IMG/VR virus record: IMGVR_UViG_3300036861_000473
Direction: 5' to 3' (one strand)
Source of the DNA: a virus
Lineage: Duplodnaviria; Caudoviricetes
Length of the DNA: 60,029 nt
In this document: positions 4,359 through 19,535 of the stretch, piece after piece
Layout: each line of letters begins with the position of its first letter
How positions within the stretch are numbered: the first letter of the stretch is position 1
The notes under the pieces: generated by a model
Seen by the model: only the letters and a program-made list of their open reading frames with translations
Database searches by the model: none
What the model was told of the DNA's origin: nothing
Translations under genes and position numbers: made by a program

Positions 4359-4769
4359 ATGCCCACGTCCACGCTCATCCTTGCCCTCGTGGCGGTCGTG
4401 CTCGTGCTGGTCTGCGGCCTGGCGGCCCTGTGGGATGGCCGCCGACGATACCGCCGGCTTGTCGAGGAGCTCCGCGGCCGGCTGGACCGGCAGACCGCCG
4501 CGACCGCCCGGGCGCTGGCCGCGACGATCGCCATCCCACCGCCACCGCCGGCCGCCCAGCTCCGTCCGGGGGCCGGGCGGCGCGCCCACACGGCCATCAG
4601 CGTGCTCGACGCGGCCGACCTGCTCCTCATCACCCGCTACGTACAACAGCGCGCCGAAGCTGGAAGCGCGCTGCACGAAGCGGCCGGCCGAGTCCGAATG
4701 ATCGGGGAGACCGCCGCCGCCGACCTTGGCATCCACGTGCATCTGCGCGGACGAGGACGGACCTCGTGA
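4359..4769 (+). CDS. Membrane-anchored hypothetical protein
   Basis: N-terminal hydrophobic helix; GGAGG RBS. Confidence 0.6.
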   Translation: MPTSTLILALVAVVLVLVCGLAALWDGRRRYRRLVEELRGRLDRQTAATARALAATIAIPPPPPAAQLRPGAGRRAHTAISVLDAADLLLITRYVQQRAEAGSALHEAAGRVRMIGETAAADLGIHVHLRGRGRTS

Positions 4770-4882
4770 AAAAGGACCTGCGGGCCGCCACAGGCTGCGT
4801 GACCGGGATCGGCGTTGGCCTCTGCTTCTGGCTGCTCCTCTTCCTGGCCATCTGGCTGACCAGGGGATGGTGGGGCGGATGA
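4766..4882 (+). CDS. Small membrane protein
   Basis: Single TM helix; overlaps both neighbours by 4 nt. Confidence 0.5.
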   Translation: MKKDLRAATGCVTGIGVGLCFWLLLFLAIWLTRGWWGG

Positions 4883-5958
4883 GCGGCGTGCTGCAGGATG
4901 GCCCGTACTGGCTGTCGCCGACCAAGATCAGCATGGCGCTTGGCTGCCCGCTGCGCGCGCAGCGCCGCTACAAGCTCAAGCTGCGCGAAAAGCCAGCCCT
5001 GCCCGCCTTCCGTGGCAACCAGCTGCATGCCGCGCTTGAGGCGACCAAGGGTCGCCCTGACCTGCCCGGCGTCGCCCACCTGACCACAGAGGTCAGGGAG
5101 GCGTGGCAGTTCAACGCGCCACCACCGTGGACAGGGCTGTTCAGCCAGTGGCTCGCGCTGCATGACGACATGGCCCCACAGATGGCCGAGCTGGACTCCA
5201 TCGCCGACCGGATCAAGACCGACGCCGAAGCCGGCCGGCGCAAGGGCGGCGCCCAGGCCCCCCGCATGACCAACGACTACCGCAAGGCCGAAGCGGACCT
5301 GATCGGCCCATGGCGCGACACCATCGACTCGTTGCGTGCCGCCGAACGCGAGTTGCTGGACGACCCTGAGCGCTCCCCCTGGGAGGCCACGACCAGGAGC
5401 GGGTTCGACGAGTACCAGTCGTCGCTGGACACCGCGCACGCCTACACGGCCTGGTGGCACAACACGCCCGCCGATGATCGGCCGGAGATCCTGCACTGCG
5501 AACGCCGCTTCGAGACCCTGCTGGACCGGGGCCACTTCAAGCTCGGCGGCCGGGTCGACCGCATCGACCTCGACCCGGTCCGGGACGCGCTGGTGGTAGT
5601 CGACTACAAGACCGGGTCGGGCAACTGGAGCAAGCACGAACGGTGGATTCAGGCTGCCTGCTACGCGCTCGGCGTCACCGAGGTGATCGGCCAGCGCCCA
5701 GACCTGGTCCGCTTCATCGACCTCGACAAGGGCCCGTCGACCGACACCTACCCGGTCAAGCCGATGTGGGACATCAAGCTGCTTGACACCTGCCGGTACG
5801 CCCGCGACCTGATCGAAGGCCCCCCGGTCGCCACCTTCGGACCGTGCGGGATCTGCTCCTACACGGACTTGTGCTTTGACCTAGCCGGCAACGGCTTCCA
5901 GTTCCAGGCGCTCGAAGACCTCGAGCAGCCCGCCGCAGAAGAGGTGACCCCAGCATGA
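4879..5958 (+). CDS. PD-(D/E)XK RecB/Cas4-like exonuclease
   Basis: LSPTKI..CP, GNQLHAALE, GRVDRID, VVVDYKTG, QAACYA, CGICSY..C. Confidence 0.88.
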   Translation: MSGVLQDGPYWLSPTKISMALGCPLRAQRRYKLKLREKPALPAFRGNQLHAALEATKGRPDLPGVAHLTTEVREAWQFNAPPPWTGLFSQWLALHDDMAPQMAELDSIADRIKTDAEAGRRKGGAQAPRMTNDYRKAEADLIGPWRDTIDSLRAAERELLDDPERSPWEATTRSGFDEYQSSLDTAHAYTAWWHNTPADDRPEILHCERRFETLLDRGHFKLGGRVDRIDLDPVRDALVVVDYKTGSGNWSKHERWIQAACYALGVTEVIGQRPDLVRFIDLDKGPSTDTYPVKPMWDIKLLDTCRYARDLIEGPPVATFGPCGICSYTDLCFDLAGNGFQFQALEDLEQPAAEEVTPA

Positions 5959-6878
5959 CCACCACGGACCGTCCACAGCTCGCCAGGCTGGCGCAGCGCA
6001 TCGACCAAGGGTTCATCCGCAACACCCGCGACGACGGCAAAGGGGAGGACTACGCGCCCCACCACGCCGTCAACCAGTTGCTGCTGCTGATCCTCGGCCC
6101 GTTCAGCTTCAAGCTCGTGCAGATCCACCGCGGTGATGTCCTCGAACGCATCCGCGAGGACCCGAACAAGGGCCGTTTCCTTGAGGGCAAGTCGGTGGTC
6201 AAGCTCCACAACGTGGTCGTGGGTGCCACCTTCCGGCTCGCCGCCACCGTGGACGGCGAGCGGGTGGTGATCGAGCAGACCGGTGATGTCGAGCACGCCG
6301 ACCTGTGGCAGCACGACGGTGCCCGCCTGAAAGATGCCGAGTCGGATGCGCTGAAACGGTGCGCGATGCGGCTCGGCCTGGGCCTGCACCTGTGGGCCGA
6401 CCGTGGCTACATCCTCGACAAGTGGCTCCCCGTCCCCAAGACACAGGGGAACGGGTCGGCGGCGCCAGCGGACTCGCGGACGCCGGCGCCAGCCGCCCCG
6501 CCCCCACAGCCTGCCACCACCCCACCACAGCAGACCCCCGCCGAACCGGCAGAGGCACCCCCCGCCTCGCCGACGGCGGACGCCCGGGCCACCTCGGCGA
6601 CTTCCCCCGCCGAGGAGGCCCGGGCCACCATCACCCCCGGCGGCCCCCTCGAAGCCGCACAGAACATCGAACAGCTCGCCACCGCGCTCAACCGGTCACT
6701 CACCAACGTGATGCTGCGCTTGCGCCGCGCCGGCCAGCTCCCCCCCAACCACCCCCAGAAACTGCCCGAACAGCCGTTCGCCAACATCGACACGATCGAC
6801 CAGCTCAAAGCGCTCGCCGGCGACGACTTCAACCTGGCCAAGGCGTGGCTGCTCGACGCCGCAGGAGCCCCAGCATGA
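5955..6878 (+). CDS. Rad52/Sak-like single-strand annealing protein
   Basis: KDAESDALKRCAMRLGLGLHLW motif; follows the exonuclease; Pro/Ala-rich linker. Confidence 0.75.
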   Translation: MTTTDRPQLARLAQRIDQGFIRNTRDDGKGEDYAPHHAVNQLLLLILGPFSFKLVQIHRGDVLERIREDPNKGRFLEGKSVVKLHNVVVGATFRLAATVDGERVVIEQTGDVEHADLWQHDGARLKDAESDALKRCAMRLGLGLHLWADRGYILDKWLPVPKTQGNGSAAPADSRTPAPAAPPPQPATTPPQQTPAEPAEAPPASPTADARATSATSPAEEARATITPGGPLEAAQNIEQLATALNRSLTNVMLRLRRAGQLPPNHPQKLPEQPFANIDTIDQLKALAGDDFNLAKAWLLDAAGAPA

Positions 6879-7474
6879 CCCGCCTCTGCTTCCTGGACAC
6901 CGAGACCACGTCGCTCGACCCGGACCGCGGCGAGGTCTACGAGATCGGACTCATCGTCCGCGACCCGGGCAGCAGTGCCCTCGATTTGGAGTGGCGCTGG
7001 TGGCTACCCATCGACCTCGGCCGCGCCGACCCGATGTCGCTTGAGGTCGGCCGCTACTTCGAGCGTCGGCCGCCGCAGAGCCGCACCTGGACAGGCGCGC
7101 TCCAGTGGGCACCCGATCAGGCCGGCCAGGTCGAGCAGGCCGACACCTGGGAGGTCGCCGCCTCGCTGATGGAACTGACCGCCAGCGCGCACCTGGTCGG
7201 CGCCGTCCCCTCGTTCGACGCGGCGTTCCTCTCGCCGTTCCTGCGCCAGCGGGGCTGCTGCCCGGCATGGCACTACCACCTTTGCTGCGTGGAAAACCTC
7301 GCCGTTGGCTATCTCGCAGCGCAAGGCAAACCTGTCGCGCCACCGTGGGTGTCGCACGATCTCTCTACAATGATGGGTGTCGATGTAGAGAGGTACGAGA
7401 AGCACACGGCATTGGGAGACGCGCGGTGGGCGAGAGACCTGTACGACGCTGTGATGAGTGCGGGAGGGAGATAA
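6875..7474 (+). CDS. DnaQ/DEDDh 3'-5' exonuclease
   Basis: FLDTETTSL, VGAVPSFDAAFL, HTALGDA. Confidence 0.88.
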   Translation: MTRLCFLDTETTSLDPDRGEVYEIGLIVRDPGSSALDLEWRWWLPIDLGRADPMSLEVGRYFERRPPQSRTWTGALQWAPDQAGQVEQADTWEVAASLMELTASAHLVGAVPSFDAAFLSPFLRQRGCCPAWHYHLCCVENLAVGYLAAQGKPVAPPWVSHDLSTMMGVDVERYEKHTALGDARWARDLYDAVMSAGGR

Positions 7475-7962
7475 CCCGTGCGAACTGCGCCAGGGGCCTT
7501 TGCACCGCCTGCTATGCGCGATGGCGGCGGAACCAGCCTGACCGATGCCGGTACTGCGGCGGGAAGCTCGGGGATGAGCCGCTGCGTGGCCGCTCGCACG
7601 AGCGGTGCCTCGCCAACCGACGGAAACGCTGGGGGCAGTACCGCATCCGTGTGCTCGCCGGCTATGGCGGGAAGTGCGCGTGCTGCGGCGAGGCCGACCC
7701 GAGGTTCCTCACCATCGACCACATCAACGGGGACGGTCGCCTTCACCGGGAAGCCCTCGGCAGGGGGTCAGGCCGCGTCTGGCTTGACATCCTCAAGCGA
7801 GGCTTCCCGCCCGAGTACCAAGTGCTCTGCTACAACTGCAATTCCGGTCGCTCAATCAATGGTGGCATCTGCCCCCACCTCGACCCGCTTGGCACTTCCG
7901 CTTGGCTGGAGGGCAAGCATCGTGAGGTCGAGCGCTGGATTCGCGAGCGACAGCGGACGTAG
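7426..7962 (+). CDS. HNH homing endonuclease
   Basis: CACCGE...LTIDHINGDG...QVLCYNCN; N-terminal Cys motifs; GTG start after GGGAGA. Confidence 0.85.
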   Translation: MGERPVRRCDECGREITRANCARGLCTACYARWRRNQPDRCRYCGGKLGDEPLRGRSHERCLANRRKRWGQYRIRVLAGYGGKCACCGEADPRFLTIDHINGDGRLHREALGRGSGRVWLDILKRGFPPEYQVLCYNCNSGRSINGGICPHLDPLGTSAWLEGKHREVERWIRERQRT

Positions 7963-8059
7963 CGCACCGGAGGACTTCGAGCGGCACACCGCGCTTGGCG
8001 ACGCCCGCTGGGTGCGCGCCATCTACGACGCGGTCATGGCTGAGAGGCGGCAGCCATGA
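7963..8059 (+). pseudogene. Stranded original 3' end of the DnaQ exonuclease
   Basis: Encodes PEDFERHTALGDARWVRAIYDAVMAERRQP, a duplicate of the exonuclease C-terminus. Confidence 0.85.
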
Positions 8060-8400
8060 GCGCGCAGACGCCCGGGGCGCCTTCGCGGCGGGAGGTGCCC
8101 CGGGCCCAACCATCCCAGCCTCCCCGGTCCGAGGCTGGGCTGGTGGATGAGCACCTGCGGCACATGACCGACGGCCGCTGGCACGACGACTGCCGCTACT
8201 GCCGGCGACGCCGCGAAGAGGGCGGCACCGGCGTCCCCCCAGCCGAGATCCTTCGCAGTTACGAGCGGCGCAACGGGCCATCCCTCTTCCCCGATCTGCG
8301 GGTCGCACTGCTCGCCGGCGCCGACGCGCTCGAGCAGCTGGAGATCGGCGGCGACCTGGTCGCCATCATCGGCCACCTCGGCGGTGAGACCGATGGCTGA
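8056..8400 (+). CDS. Hypothetical protein
   Basis: ATGA overlap with the remnant stop; H..H..C..C motif. Confidence 0.6.
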   Translation: MSAQTPGAPSRREVPRAQPSQPPRSEAGLVDEHLRHMTDGRWHDDCRYCRRRREEGGTGVPPAEILRSYERRNGPSLFPDLRVALLAGADALEQLEIGGDLVAIIGHLGGETDG

Positions 8401-8695
8401 CGTGGAGGTGCACACCCTCGTGAGCGAGGTGTTGGTGGACGGCGACCCGATGGTGAAGATCACCCACACGCCCGACGGGCGCGCATGCCCATGGCGGGTC
8501 ACCGCGACCCCACCCGCAGGGCTCGGCGCCCCCGCCGACCGTGACCTGTTCGCCCTGTTCGACACCGAGCCGGCCGCGGTCCAGGCCGCCCAGGCCCTGG
8601 CACAGCGGCTGCATACCGCGCGGGAGCTGCTCCGCCAAGCCAACCAGCAGCTCCGCGAGGCCCGGGCAGGCCTCAAGGAGGCCGAGCATGGCTGA
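8393..8695 (+). CDS. Hypothetical protein, C-terminal coiled coil
   Basis: Coupled ORF, GC3-rich. Confidence 0.6.
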   Translation: MADVEVHTLVSEVLVDGDPMVKITHTPDGRACPWRVTATPPAGLGAPADRDLFALFDTEPAAVQAAQALAQRLHTARELLRQANQQLREARAGLKEAEHG

Positions 8696-8933
8696 CATCC
8701 TCGCCGCCCAAGCCCTCGATGACCAGCTCCTGGCCGTGTTGCGTGACGCGCAGGGGTTCCCGCTGTCCACCCGGCAGGTGTGTGAGGCGGCCGGGCCGAT
8801 GGCATGGCCACCCGACTACATCACCTGGAAGCGGCTCGACACGCTCGCCAAGGCGGGGCGGGTTGAGCGGGTCAAGCTGGCGGGCTGGCGGCAAGTCTGG
8901 TGGCGAGTCTCCGGGACGGTCGGCGATGGGTAG
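8688..8933 (+). CDS. Winged-helix-like DNA-binding protein
   Basis: LLAVLRDAQGFPLSTRQV...RLDTLAKAGRVERV; AAGGAGG RBS. Confidence 0.55.
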   Translation: MADILAAQALDDQLLAVLRDAQGFPLSTRQVCEAAGPMAWPPDYITWKRLDTLAKAGRVERVKLAGWRQVWWRVSGTVGDG

Positions 8934-9321
8934 GCCCAGCGCGGTCTACCAGCCGCAGCTCGCCGGCGAGCGGGAGTGCCTCAACTGTGGTGACCCGTTC
9001 ACGCCGCTCCCGCACCCGGCGTGGGCTGGCCTGTACTGCCAGGAGGCGTGCTGGATCGCCAACAACGGCGGGCCACGCCGCCACCGCACCGCCTACCGGC
9101 CCCGCCCCGCCGCCACACCCCCGCCGCCCCCGCCGCCCCCGCCGCCCCTGGCCACGCCTGTGGCGGATGCGGTGACGCTCGAGGAGGCCGTCGCGGCACT
9201 GGAGGTCCGGCTGCCGCACCTGCAGCCGCCACCGCCGCGCCGGCTGGTCGTGGTCGGCGTGACCGCCTGCCCGCGGTGTGACACCACCCACAAGGTCTAC
9301 GGCTACCGAGGTGCGCCATGA
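8926..9321 (+). CDS. Zinc-finger, Pro-rich hypothetical protein
   Basis: CLNCG...YCQEAC and CPRC motifs. Confidence 0.55.
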   Translation: MGRPSAVYQPQLAGERECLNCGDPFTPLPHPAWAGLYCQEACWIANNGGPRRHRTAYRPRPAATPPPPPPPPPPLATPVADAVTLEEAVAALEVRLPHLQPPPPRRLVVVGVTACPRCDTTHKVYGYRGAP

Positions 9322-13106: not shown

Positions 13107-13387
13107 GCGCCCTCGTGGAGTGCCCCCGCTGCCAGGTGCTCCTCCGCGAGCATCCACTCCACGAGTGCCCAAGCTGCCACCGCTGGGCCAACCACCTCGA
13201 ACCCGACGGACGCTGCCTCGACTGCAACCTCCACTGGACCCACTGCCCCGAGCATGGCCGCCTCGAACACGCCGGCACCAACCACCAGCGGGTCACCGCC
13301 CACCAGATCCTCACCACCCTCCAACAACGTCAGCAGCAGCCCAGCAACGTCATCGTCGGCCCCTGGGGTGCCAGTGCCAGCCAATGA
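13103..13387 (+). CDS. Zinc-finger protein
   Basis: Three CxxC and one CPEH motif. Confidence 0.55.
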   Translation: MSALVECPRCQVLLREHPLHECPSCHRWANHLEPDGRCLDCNLHWTHCPEHGRLEHAGTNHQRVTAHQILTTLQQRQQQPSNVIVGPWGASASQ

Positions 13388-14843
13388 CCACCACCAGCCA
13401 CCCCGCAACCCCGACGCCGAGGCCGCGGTCCTGGGCGCCATGCTGCTGGACACCGCCGCCCTGGAGCGCGCCCTCGTCACCTTGGATGCCGGCGACTTCT
13501 ACAACCCCACCCACCGGCTCATCTTCACCGCCTGCGCGCACCTCGAAGCCGCCAGCCAGCCAGTCGACCCCGTCACCGTCGCCGCCCACTTGGCAGCCGC
13601 CGGCCAGCTCGAGCAGATCGGCGGCGCCACCTACCTCCACGACCTGCTCGAAGCCGTCCCCACCATCGCGCAGACCGCCACCTACCTCGACCTGGTCGCC
13701 CAGGCGGCCGCCGCGCGGCGCCTCATCGACGTCGGCCACCGCATCACCCAACTCGGCCACGAGCAGGGCCTCGACCCTGACAAGGCGCAGCAGATCGCTG
13801 CGGAGCTGCTGGAGCAGGTCGGCAACGCAAGACCGCACGCACTCGTCCGCGACCGCCGCCTCCAGGAGGCCCCCGTGTTCATCTTCGACCCGTTCGCCGA
13901 CCTGCCCGCCATCTGGGGCGACGGCCAGGAGGTCGCCTGGCCATCCGGCGAGAGCCTCGTCATCGCCGGCCCGCAGGGCGTCGGCAAGTCCACCCTGGCA
14001 CAGCGGCTCACGCTGGCCCGCATCGGTGTCGGCCCGGCCACGCTGCTTGGCATGCCCGTGGCTCCTACCGCCAGCCGCGTGCTCTATCTCGCCTGTGACC
14101 GGCCCGGCCAGATCGCCCGGTCCATGCGACGCATGGTCACCGAGGAGGACCGTGTCACGCTCGCCGAACGGCTGATGGTGTGGCGTGGACCGCCACCTGT
14201 CGACCTGGCCAAGGAGCCTCGCGCGCTGCTCAGCCTGGCCCGCAACGCCGACGCCGACACCGTCGTCATCGACTCCCTCAAGGACGCCGCGCTAGATCTA
14301 GTCAAGGATGAGGTGGGCGCCAGATACAACCAGGCCCGCCAAATCTGCCTGACCGAGGGTATCGACCTGCTGGAACTCCATCACCAGCGCAAAGCCGCAG
14401 CCGACAACAAACGGCCACGCAAGCTCGACGACGTGTACGGGTCGAATTGGCTGACCGCCGGTGCCGGCTCGGTGCTCCTATTGTGGGGTGAACCTGGCGA
14501 TCCGATCGTCGAATTGAGTCACCTGAAACAGCCCGTTGAGGAGATCGGGCCGATGAAGCTGCTGCACGACGCCGAGACCGGTGGCATCTCCGTCCAGCAG
14601 GGTGTTGATCTGCTTACCCTGGTGCGCACTCAGCCTGGCCTGACCGCCGCCGACGCCGCCCGGCTCCTGTTCGACGTGGAGGGCCGCTCCGCTGAGCCCA
14701 AAGAGGTGGAGAAGGCCCGTCGGCGGCTCGACTCGCTGGTGCGCCGCGGCCTCGTCAAGCAGCAGCCAGGCACGCGCGGCCGCGTCGGCGGTGCCATCAA
14801 CCCAGCGACCTACCACCCTGTCGTCGACCTGGACGCCCCATGA
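13368..14843 (+). CDS. Replicative helicase: DnaB N-terminal domain fused to RepA/AAA_25-like ATPase
   Basis: PPRNPDAEAAVLGAMLL...DFYNPTHRLIF...IGGATYL; Walker A GPQGVGKS; Walker B VVIDSL; HHQRK; YGS. Confidence 0.88.
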   Translation: MPVPANDHHQPPRNPDAEAAVLGAMLLDTAALERALVTLDAGDFYNPTHRLIFTACAHLEAASQPVDPVTVAAHLAAAGQLEQIGGATYLHDLLEAVPTIAQTATYLDLVAQAAAARRLIDVGHRITQLGHEQGLDPDKAQQIAAELLEQVGNARPHALVRDRRLQEAPVFIFDPFADLPAIWGDGQEVAWPSGESLVIAGPQGVGKSTLAQRLTLARIGVGPATLLGMPVAPTASRVLYLACDRPGQIARSMRRMVTEEDRVTLAERLMVWRGPPPVDLAKEPRALLSLARNADADTVVIDSLKDAALDLVKDEVGARYNQARQICLTEGIDLLELHHQRKAAADNKRPRKLDDVYGSNWLTAGAGSVLLLWGEPGDPIVELSHLKQPVEEIGPMKLLHDAETGGISVQQGVDLLTLVRTQPGLTAADAARLLFDVEGRSAEPKEVEKARRRLDSLVRRGLVKQQPGTRGRVGGAINPATYHPVVDLDAP

Positions 14844-17920: not shown

Positions 17921-19063
17921 CTAGGGGATGCGAACGGGCATGATCAGGCCGCGGAAGCCGTTACCATCGGTCACCAAAGCCGGCTTGAGGCTATCCCGGA
18001 GCTGCATCGTCCCGTGGTCGACCGCGGCCAGCAGCTCACGTAGGTACAGCGGCTTGAAGCTGGTAGGGGTGAACGGCGTGTAGCCTGCCAGTTTCAGGCC
18101 TGGTAGTTCCGCCTCGACCTTGCCGATGTCCTGCCGCTTGCACGAGGCGGCGATGGTCGCGCCGCTCGCCTCGAGGATGATCGGCTCGCGTCCGAACGAT
18201 GCCACGATCGCCGCGGCGGCCGCCGCACCATCGGTGACGTCGATGGTTGGCACATCGCCCGTCATGGTCGGGATCAGCCGCTCCCAAGTGGAGGGAAACT
18301 CGCCCTCTATGGCCCGGGCCCAGAACATCGACGGCCCAACCTGCACGCGCACCTCGCCCGTGCCGTGTGTGTCGGTGCCCGTGCCATGCCACCAGGCGCC
18401 GCCCTCGGTCGCCTTGTACAGCGCGATGGCCTGCTTGACCAGGGTGAGCGCCCGGGCGGGTAGCAGGAAGCAAAACGCCGAATCGTCTAGCTGTTCGGTC
18501 TGGTAGGTGTGGAGGCGATAGGAATCGGTCGCGGTCGCGGTCAGCGTGCCCTGGTCGCGCTTGACCTGGACCGCGGTCAACACTGGGCGAGCCTCATCGC
18601 CGCTGGTCGCTGGCAGTACCCGCCGCGCCCACGTGCCAAGCAGGCCGAGGTCGGAGGTCACGCGCACCTCGCCCTCTGAGACCTCGCCGCGCAACGTCGG
18701 ATAGTCCTCGAGCGCGTTGACGTGGAGCGCCGCATGCAGGCCGCCAGCATGCATGCGCAGCAGGCCGGCTTCCTGGTCGAGCTCGAGCCGCGCGAGTGTT
18801 CCCTTTGGCTGGCGTCCCTTGAGGGTTGCGGCGAGCTCGCGCAACGGCACCACGACGGCACCAGTGTCGACCACCAGCGACGAGTCAAGCCGCGTCGTGC
18901 TGGTCAACTCAAGGTCCGTCGTGGTGATCGTGACCGGGCGGCCCCAGCCGGCCGCCTCGATCTTCACTCCGCCCAGAACGGGCAGGGTCGGACGACGCGA
19001 GCACGTGCCAGCCGCGACTTTGAGCGCGCGGACGAGCTCGGCATGGTCAACGTCGAAATGCAA
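17921..19063 (-). CDS. dnaN: DNA polymerase III beta sliding clamp homologue
   Basis: RPTLPVLGGV, TTDLE, EDYPTL, DEARPVLTAV, ATDSYRL, IEGEFP, KPAL, LIMPVRI; TTG start after AAGGGA, but may be frameshift-fused to the upstream ORF. Confidence 0.88.
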   Translation of the reverse strand: MHFDVDHAELVRALKVAAGTCSRRPTLPVLGGVKIEAAGWGRPVTITTTDLELTSTTRLDSSLVVDTGAVVVPLRELAATLKGRQPKGTLARLELDQEAGLLRMHAGGLHAALHVNALEDYPTLRGEVSEGEVRVTSDLGLLGTWARRVLPATSGDEARPVLTAVQVKRDQGTLTATATDSYRLHTYQTEQLDDSAFCFLLPARALTLVKQAIALYKATEGGAWWHGTGTDTHGTGEVRVQVGPSMFWARAIEGEFPSTWERLIPTMTGDVPTIDVTDGAAAAAAIVASFGREPIILEASGATIAASCKRQDIGKVEAELPGLKLAGYTPFTPTSFKPLYLRELLAAVDHGTMQLRDSLKPALVTDGNGFRGLIMPVRIP

Positions 19064-19169
19064 ACCGCCTGTCCCTTGGGTAGCCGGCTTCGGCGGGGTA
19101 GGTGGCGGGGTAGGCCGCGGCGGAGTAGCCGGCTGGGCAGGCTTCGGTGGCTGGGCGGGCTTCGGTGGG

Positions 19170-19535
19170 CTAGCCGGCTTGCTTGGCGCCGCGCTCGAGA
19201 TTGGCCGCTTGACCGCTGGCCGCTTGCTTGGCTGCTGCCTGCTTGGCGGCCTCGCGCTTGACCTCCGCGGCGGCCGCGTTGTAGTCGGTTTGGGACTTGC
19301 GGTAGTTGCGGCCCGTGTACCGTTTGACGTAGCGGTAGGTGACGCGGCCACCCTCGAGGCGAATCCACGCAACCCATGCTGCCGGGCGCGGTCGATAGTC
19401 GGTTTGGTAGCCGTCCGAAGCCTCACCAGACCAGAGCTCGACTTTGACTGTGCGGCCGCCAGCAATCGTGACCTCTGCACGGTCGACAAGGCTTGCCCTG
19501 GCAGGAACCGCCGTATTGTTACCATCGCGCATCAT
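19170..19535 (-). CDS. Hypothetical protein (possible N-terminal part of clamp fusion)
   Basis: AGAAGGGG RBS; MMRDGNN...AEVKREAAKQ. Confidence 0.6.
   Translation of the reverse strand: MMRDGNNTAVPARASLVDRAEVTIAGGRTVKVELWSGEASDGYQTDYRPRPAAWVAWIRLEGGRVTYRYVKRYTGRNYRKSQTDYNAAAAEVKREAAKQAAAKQAASGQAANLERGAKQAG

Follow-up and report, generated by a model that had tools for sequence, protein, structure and literature searches.

Among described systems, the closest to the one reported here are the mobile open reading frames (mORFs) of fungal mitochondria, hybrid genes with a C-terminal duplication that are known from atp6 of Allomyces macrogynus and from atp6, atp9, cox2 and nad3 of Glomus (Beaudet 2013, PMC3630166). 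In the cases detailed in that text, a gene core is followed by a foreign C-terminus in phase with it, by an endonuclease open reading frame (ORF) and by a remnant of the native C-terminus; of the two C-termini the remnant is the one nearer to relatives, many differences are synonymous, and no splicing is needed. Here we describe a locus with the same parts in a virus of the Caudoviricetes. The window that we analysed is the whole of IMG/VR record IMGVR_UViG_3300036861_000473 (60,029 bases, 69.7% GC), a complete 60-kb phage contig with direct terminal repeats. In it, a cassette at 7280..7963 gives a DnaQ-like exonuclease gene a foreign 3′ end, carries an HNH endonuclease gene that starts inside that end, and is followed by the native 3′ end of DnaQ, displaced and orphaned.

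Unlike the mitochondrial mORFs, the element resides in a phage genome with terminal repeats. The mORF endonucleases are of the LAGLIDADG or GIY-YIG families, whereas that of the window is an HNH protein; and while the endonuclease ORFs of mORFs are fused in phase with the host gene or are separate from it, that of the window overlaps its host gene out of frame by 49 nt and has its start signals within a catalytic motif. For the Allomyces endonuclease, activity has been demonstrated biochemically, as stated in PMC3630166, while for the HNH protein of the window it is a prediction from sequence. By analogy of layout, we place the window element with the mORF type: it would work like the mORFs without being one of them.

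Three phage systems also offer points of comparison. The free-standing homing endonucleases of T4-like phages, which include the Seg proteins and the HNH enzyme MobE, spread by 'intronless homing' (PMC2988022, PMC2790892, PMC2330249), and for one free-standing homing endonuclease of the HNH type the mobilization of flanking DNA has been described (Wilson and Edgell 2009, PMC2790892). As in those accounts, the nuclease gene of the window lies outside any intron or intein, beside a conserved gene, is sporadic in occurrence and would move its flanks by gene conversion. However, the T4 nuclease genes treated there are intergenic, or else divide a gene into two parts that both function (nrdA, gene 60, gene 43), whereas the host gene in the window is kept whole by a replacement end that the element carries, with a remnant left behind. 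The homing endonuclease gene islands of ICP1-like phages contain gene fragments beside the nuclease genes, which have been proposed to be recombination substrates (Barth 2023, PMC10055350); there, as here, nuclease genes stand at the boundaries of exchanged DNA and adjoin small fragments homologous to full-length essential genes. The nuclease families and the phages differ, and that article's account of the islands describes no fragment that is the displaced 3′ end of a gene completed by a cassette. Finally, hidden HNH insertions of the ShiLan type occur in methylase genes of actinobacteriophages (Arsenault 2025, PMC11855218). Like these, the HNH gene of the window lies out of frame within a coding sequence of actinophage type, begins with GTG and bears no signature of an intron or intein; but the ShiLan insertion, as portrayed there, is read through in the frame of the host protein, whereas the host frame of the window ends at a TAA (7472-7474) and a replacement C-terminus is supplied. 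In our search of the literature, which covered main texts, no phage case was found in which a replacement 3′ end is carried and the native tail displaced; as to displaced 3′ ends, the nearest statement was the general remark on gene fragments in the text of Barth 2023 (PMC10055350).

A chimeric DnaQ-like gene and its displaced 3′ end

The features of the locus, all on the + strand, are as follows.

6875..7474, +, DnaQ-like 3′-5′ exonuclease, chimeric, 199 aa, complete (PHROG 192, alignment A1)
6875..7279, +, native 5′ part of the DnaQ gene (by GC at third codon positions, N-part identity and N-part tree)
7280..7963, +, inserted cassette (foreign DnaQ 3′ module and HNH gene), about 684 nt
7280..7474, +, foreign DnaQ 3′ module, about 65 codons, with an ExoIII-type motif and the tail SAGGR
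7414..7428, +, Shine-Dalgarno-like GGGAGA (7414-7419) and GTG start (7426-7428), inside the DnaQ ExoIII-motif codons
7426..7474, +, dual-coding overlap, 49 nt: DnaQ tail and HNH N-terminus up to its first Cys pair, in different frames
7426..7962, +, HNH endonuclease gene, 178 aa, with a Cys-rich (zinc-ribbon-like) N-terminus and an HNH core
7964..8059, +, orphan native DnaQ 3′ end, 31 codons and TGA, in the same mod-3 frame as DnaQ

The ORF at 6875-7474 matches PHROG 192 ('DNA polymerase exonuclease subunit', E 7e-22), keeps every residue that is invariant across the 22-row alignment A1, carries an ExoIII-type motif at its C-terminus and ends at the TAA at 7472-7474. At least 80% of the protein is covered, with a DnaQ-like annotation, in 224 of the 260 matching phage records. 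The composition of the gene changes within it: GC in 120-nt windows is 57-61% at 7280-7480 as against 68-73% on either side, and GC at third codon positions (GC3) is 0.917 over codons 1-132 and 0.672 over codons 133-199, with neighbouring genes at 0.86-0.89. In the genome background, taken from a crude gene set (9223 windows of 67 codons, mean 0.889, sd 0.063), only 58 windows have a GC3 of 0.672 or less, the 15 lowest all lying within the sliding clamp gene.

We divided the DnaQ proteins into an N-part and a C-part where the protein of the window departs from its relatives. Its N-part is 76-86% identical to those of P0002-P0005, P0008 and P0012, the closest N-part relatives, but its C-part only 51-63%, and the 3′ module holds five residues that these relatives lack. 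The converse holds for P0018, P0091, P0242, P0025 and P0042, whose C-parts are 83, 83, 77, 73 and 72% identical to that of the window and whose N-parts reach only 48, 30, 31, 48 and 40%, respectively. At the DNA level, identity to the HNH-less locus L002 falls from 85% (74 of 87 positions) over 7190-7279 to 59% (115 of 195) over 7280-7474. The trees agree with this division. For the N-part, the window falls in starred clades with P0002 and P0005 (support 96) and with 13 rows (97); for the C-part, it groups with P0018, P0242, P0042 and P0091 (support 85/65, with an inner fork at 94/90). In approximately unbiased (AU) tests, the N-part alignment rejects the five-row group of the window with P0018, P0242, P0042 and P0091 (p 2e-39), and the C-part alignment rejects the window with P0002 and P0005 (p 6e-7). 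Taken on codon usage, alignments and trees, the expressed 3′ end of DnaQ is identified as a foreign allele, from another DnaQ lineage.

P0002 and P0004, of the same N-part clade (86% and 81% identical to the window over the N-part), have C-parts of a third type, which are 88% identical to each other and cluster in the C-part tree with P0023, P0026 and P0043. In this clade, then, replacement of the DnaQ 3′ region seems to have happened more than once.

The orphan begins one base past the stop codon of the HNH gene, has no start codon nearby, and ends in a TGA that overlaps the ATG (8056) of the next gene. Its GC3 is 0.871. Compared with the DnaQ ends of the HNH-less loci L002, L003 and L006, the orphan is identical at 78/96, 77/96 and 80/96 positions (81%, 80% and 83%), the copy within the cassette at 59/93, 60/93 and 56/93 (63%, 65% and 60%). 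In all three loci the DnaQ stop overlaps the GTG of the next gene (GTGA) at the same place as the TGA/ATG of the orphan, and L006 is also syntenic farther downstream. In a large protein collection, the closest DnaQ proteins (P0003, P0005, P0007, P0008, P0009, P0011 and P0012; 65-75% identity) have tails that resemble that of the orphan and not that of the expressed copy. Orphan and cassette copy form a direct repeat of 61 nt with 72% identity at a spacing of 582; the 22 aligned codons comprise 7 identical pairs, 9 synonymous differences and 6 non-synonymous ones, and within the nine-codon ExoIII motif six of the nine differ synonymously. Chance does not account for the repeat: tblastn with nothing but the orphan peptide recovers DnaQ 3′ ends from other phage contigs (E down to 5.6e-12). 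By these alignments, the orphan is assigned with confidence as the native 3′ end of DnaQ, displaced. One of its codons, at 8009-8011, encodes Val in column A186 of alignment A1, where at least 90% of the aligned DnaQ proteins have Ala. This Val may be a first sign of decay in an untranslated remnant; it also occurs in a few intact relatives (P0104, P0111).

An earlier, sequence-only reading of this stretch had described a DnaQ end of lower GC from about 7280, an orphan in normal codons still coupled to the next gene through ATGA, and six synonymous differences among the nine motif codons, and all three descriptions are borne out by the values above. It had further proposed that the element replaced the 3′ end of its host gene with a recoded copy. 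Replacement holds: the cassette took the place of part of the DnaQ 3′ region and supplies an ExoIII motif. Recoding of the host's own end does not, for 6 of 22 codons differ non-synonymously, the length differs by five residues and the place in the tree is another, as befits a foreign allele. The same points bear on a tandem duplication of the DnaQ 3′ end in situ, with divergence and a later insertion of the HNH gene between the copies. Two copies in direct orientation, 582 nt apart, are what such a history would leave, but the upstream copy has foreign codon usage, departs in length from P0002-P0005, P0008 and P0012 and groups with another DnaQ lineage, and the foreign tract begins some 100 nt before the duplicated part; we consider this origin very improbable.

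Alignment with HNH-less relatives, the comparison proposed with that reading, places the junctions at 7280 and 7964, the left one being set by DNA and protein alignments and the right one by the start of homology to the 3′ ends of relatives. Contigs of HNH-less relatives from the same soils (80% likeness) jump in alignment from 7231, 7281 and 7317 to 7967, 7979 and 7978, respectively. The three come from the first two soil runs and have 3′ ends that resemble the orphan and not the cassette copy; they are other HNH-less phages, not variants of the phage of the window. At the borders of the cassette, a search for short repeats gave only short, weak matches beyond the main repeat, and no clear target-site duplication or microhomology.

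Given that the record is a metagenome contig and that related HNH-less phages occur in the same runs, an assembly chimera of two phages from one sample could be suspected. Against it, Logan contigs of two soil runs span the cassette, over 6603-9094 with 3 differences and over 5500-9094 with 0, although these two runs may be the source samples of the record. A 156-base contig from a third study crosses the left junction (7227-7382) with 0 differences; this run, X3, is without cover over 7383-8269, so that it bears on the left junction only and not on the HNH gene. The exact DnaQ protein of the window is moreover recorded on two contigs. We give a chimera hardly any credence. The contigs of all three runs break at a skipped repeat at 9095-9154, within a Pro-rich coding stretch (region 8719-9321).

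The HNH gene and its start signals inside DnaQ

The HNH ORF is intact from the GTG at 7426 to a TAG at 7960-7962. It matches the profiles of PHROG 2255 ('HNH endonuclease', E 4.6e-10), PHROG 1271 (E 1.9e-5) and PHROG 3106 (E 0.0069), and among its tblastn matches are genes annotated as HNH endonucleases in phages of Streptomyces and Arthrobacter. The protein keeps all 29 invariant columns of alignment A3, including C84, C87, D98, H99, C135, N137, C138 and N139. The protein thus displays the motif of the HNH superfamily, Asp-His, Asn and Asn/His in order, framed by two Cys-x-x-Cys pairs; the Asp-His and Asn residues we take to be catalytic. An AlphaFold 2 (AF2) model has a mean predicted local distance difference test score (pLDDT) of 76. 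In the protein collection the gene was called as only 103 of the 178 residues, starting at Val76 (P0123), a call that leaves off 75 conserved, zinc-ribbon-like residues at the N-terminus. Conservation of this Cys-rich part extends to P0121, P0122, P0124, P0126-P0134, L162 and L163. P0121 is 86% identical to the window protein over 98% of the query, and it shares with P0241 and P0122 the N-terminal extension that overlaps the DnaQ tail in the window.

The start signals of this gene are embedded in the ExoIII-type motif of DnaQ. The Shine-Dalgarno-like GGGAGA ends six bases upstream of the GTG, and the two fall in the DnaQ codons for Leu-Gly-Asp and Arg-Trp, respectively; the orphan has TGGCGA and CTG in these positions. 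The Shine-Dalgarno-like site and the start codon of HNH thus owe their existence to three of the six synonymous motif differences, those in Leu, Gly and Arg, so that immunity to cleavage is not the only possible reason for the synonymous differences. P0121 and P0241 start exactly at the position of the GTG, P0122 has an internal Met there, and there is no alternative start codon between 7426 and the first Cys of HNH. As the sequence-only reading had held, the gene starts inside the low-GC stretch and part of the cassette codes twice, over the 49 nt that it shares with DnaQ.

The last six codons of DnaQ overlap the first Cys pair of the HNH protein. A tail of the form SAGGR or SAGVR occurs in the window and in four other DnaQ proteins (P0018, P0091, P0242, P0042), which together represent at least three distinct N-part lineages, and we attribute its being common to different DnaQ lineages to this overlap. 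A SAGGR-type tail may therefore serve as a flag, at the protein level, of an overlapping HNH start. Because of the overlap, any transfer of the nuclease gene has to take along no less than the last 49 nt of DnaQ, and because its start signals lie inside the ExoIII motif, the gene is bound to the DnaQ tail. These embedded start signals are a small new twist on a known layout.

HNH ORFs occur in phage group I introns, and the downstream copy stands in the mod-3 frame of DnaQ, as would be expected if splicing joined the DnaQ exon to it across a group I (or other) intron. However, a search of 6500-8800 against Rfam gave no intron family at E up to 1; DnaQ has an ExoIII motif and a stop of its own and is complete as it stands; between the end of the HNH ORF (7426-7962) and the orphan there is a single base; and in-frame spacing has a one-in-three chance of arising anyway. 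We hold an intron to be extremely unlikely, in keeping with the initial proposal of an insertion into a coding sequence without splicing.

An in-frame insertion like that of ShiLan was considered and rejected, since the host frame stops at the TAA at 7472-7474. Over 7478-8059 no stop interrupts the DnaQ frame, and a +1 frame is equally open in only 197 of 5126 genome windows; as a signal of the ShiLan type this was also rejected, being expected from the amino acids and codons of HNH itself (P 0.71 and 0.49, respectively).

Distribution of the nuclease and proposed origin of the cassette

The nuclease is absent from the closest relatives of its host gene. None of 80 DnaQ loci from IMG/VR has an HNH relative within the locus, and a second DnaQ tail is likewise found in 0 of 80. 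With the HNH protein or its alignment we retrieved 215 HNH loci (80 viral, 80 metagenomic and 55 genomic), the metagenomic ones being the best matches listed, of which the best reaches 59% identity, while relatives of 81-86% from the protein search are not among them. Among the matches listed, a DnaQ gene occurs in 2 of the 215 loci, L162 (59%) and L163 (53%), whose HNH proteins are the nearest of all. In both, DnaQ lies directly upstream and HNH starts at the DnaQ stop; they are also the only loci among these matches that match the N-terminal part of HNH. Together with the window, all three loci of at least 53% HNH identity for which DNA is available thus have DnaQ directly upstream, as compared with 0 of the 213 others. 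The genome scan with HNH gave 55 loci, the best at 47%, none with DnaQ. A single-protein scan of IMG/VR with DnaQ found nothing, and a degenerate DNA pattern of the dual-coded overlap matched 0 stretches in IMG/VR.

Several of these relatives are of interest in themselves. Directly behind the DnaQ-HNH pair of L162, a second ORF (L162:1636-2358) has Cys/His-rich motifs resembling those of another HNH-type nuclease, and the two may form a small nuclease cluster. P0122, on a 2354-bp Logan contig, is 71% identical to the HNH protein of the window; it opens with some 50 residues of a DnaQ N-terminus that include the ExoI motif (43% identity over 46 residues, E 9e-6) and are joined to HNH through the alternative reading frame of the DnaQ tail, which suggests that the DnaQ gene beside the nuclease gene has lost a large internal part or undergone a frameshift. 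The JGI contig that encodes P0042 and the one that encodes P0125 are both 4982 bp long, a hint that they may be one and the same.

Judged from sequence comparison, then, the HNH gene appears sporadic among close relatives of the host genome, as fits a free-standing homing endonuclease gene; among its own closest relatives it appears tied to one conserved target gene, DnaQ; and the apparently co-converted flank ends at a recombination boundary beside the nuclease gene. We hypothesize that the cassette is probably a free-standing HNH homing endonuclease gene that spread by gene conversion and dragged the DnaQ 3′ end of its donor with it. The nuclease gene would normally reside directly behind, and partly inside, the 3′ end of DnaQ-like genes of phages. 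In an ancestor of the phage of the window, a break in the 3′ part of DnaQ, presumably made by the HNH enzyme, would have been repaired from a co-infecting donor phage with the HNH gene. The left crossover would have fallen in conserved sequence just upstream of 7280, and repair would have copied the last 65 or so DnaQ codons of the donor together with the HNH gene. The right end would have been joined one base past the HNH stop, perhaps by homology to a remnant already present in the donor and perhaps illegitimately. About 28 native codons (counted against P0005) would have been lost in this way, and the last 31 left as an untranslated remnant that still contains the ribosome-binding region and the start overlap of the next gene. 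No splicing is required to keep the host DnaQ whole, since an ExoIII motif and a stop codon come with the cassette. The cassette allele would be expected to resist the nuclease; and since the orphan lies in the same genome as that nuclease, its target would include sequence that was deleted, or the enzyme would only nick.

The following observations weigh against this explanation. In the AU test of the C-part (68 columns), placing the window with the whole 13-row N-part clade is not rejected (p 0.12). The C-terminal third of DnaQ is more conserved than the N-part family-wide, typical pairs having 64-70% identity over the C-part at about 35% over the N-part, so that part of the pattern of high C-part and low N-part identity is background and only the excess over 64-70% counts. 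A Pfam search with the HNH protein gave no HNH family even at E 10, and the assignment therefore rests on the PHROGs and tblastn. In structure searches with the model, which bear on the beta-beta-alpha-metal fold of the HNH superfamily, HNH nucleases top the Foldseek list at E 0.088 and worse, the best PDB match being the Gme HNH nicking endonuclease 4h9d (E 0.088) and none reaching E 0.001; a wide search with VIA-align gave Z of at most 3.6, with non-nucleases in the top rows and HNH entries at Z 2.5-2.8. No orphan follows the HNH gene in L162 or in L163, and the remnant may therefore be a one-off accident. Lastly, none of the 120 HNH proteins listed comes from the 4800-bp contig of P0091.

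Ordinary phage mosaicism could also have produced the locus, illegitimate or short-homology recombination having brought in the DnaQ 3′ end and the HNH gene with no part played by the nuclease, which may then be inactive or have another role, for example working with DnaQ. The early regions of phages are mosaic, and the other C-part type that P0002 and P0004 have on the same N-part clade indicates that 3′-end swaps recur. DnaQ and HNH are translationally coupled in L162 and L163, as functional partners would be, and HNH activity is a prediction. Yet the absence of HNH from all 80 IMG/VR DnaQ loci and from the nearest DnaQ relatives fits a needed partner poorly, all invariant residues of the HNH alignment are kept, and the recombination boundary falls exactly at the nuclease gene, as described for phage homing endonuclease genes in the islands of Barth 2023 (PMC10055350). 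We judge mosaicism without the nuclease to be unlikely.

Within the homing explanation, a further step can be envisaged, which is possible but which we regard as doubtful: the cassette may be a self-contained mobile unit composed of a DnaQ 3′ module with embedded HNH start signals, the HNH gene and a leftover DnaQ tail. If so, the two most conserved stretches of DnaQ, the one before 7280 and the ExoIII motif of the remnant, would act as homology arms; the unit could home into DnaQ genes with N-parts only 30-48% identical, whatever the downstream gene; and the synonymous differences would serve both resistance to the nuclease and its translation.

Genomic setting and significance

The DnaQ-HNH locus lies in an early recombination and replication block, as defined by PHROG matches, and terminase, portal and tail genes come after that block. 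The neighbouring features are:

4726-5958, RecB-like exonuclease of the early block (PHROG)
5955..6878, +, upstream gene with a weak Rad52/22-like match; its stop overlaps the DnaQ start (ATGA)
8056..8400, +, downstream gene, function unassigned; its ATG overlaps the TGA of the orphan
13254-14843, DnaB-like helicase of the early block (PHROG)
17921-19525, -, sliding clamp on the other strand (PHROG 947, E 5e-42)

The match of the gene at 5955..6878 to Pfam PF04098 (E 0.0078) is below the curated cut-off; homologues of this gene stand upstream of DnaQ in L002, L003 and L006. Pfam and PHROG profile searches with the gene at 8056..8400 gave no match. The sliding clamp gene is encoded on the strand opposite to that of its neighbours and includes the stretch of lowest GC3 in the genome (0.61 over 67 codons), which makes it a candidate for a further segment of foreign origin. 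A scan of 6500-8800 for promoters and terminators gave 0 sites of either kind, which says little because the host is a high-GC one. Cultured phages are distant: for DnaQ the best of them, phages of Gordonia and Mycobacterium, reach 34-39% identity.

We regard the feature as real and clearly delimited and its origin as explained for the most part; it is a phage case, with an HNH enzyme, of a kind known from organelles. For annotation, it explains a short 'orphan' motif behind an HNH gene, a DnaQ gene whose halves have different histories, and an HNH gene called at little more than half its length. Of the known ways for a nuclease gene to lie within a phage coding sequence without harm, one is to be spliced out, as introns and inteins are, and another is to split the gene into working pieces. 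The locus described here represents a third, in which the element brings its own replacement end. A layout of fungal mitochondria has here turned up with an HNH enzyme in a phage from soil, which suggests that it develops in any setting where homing nucleases encounter conserved genes.

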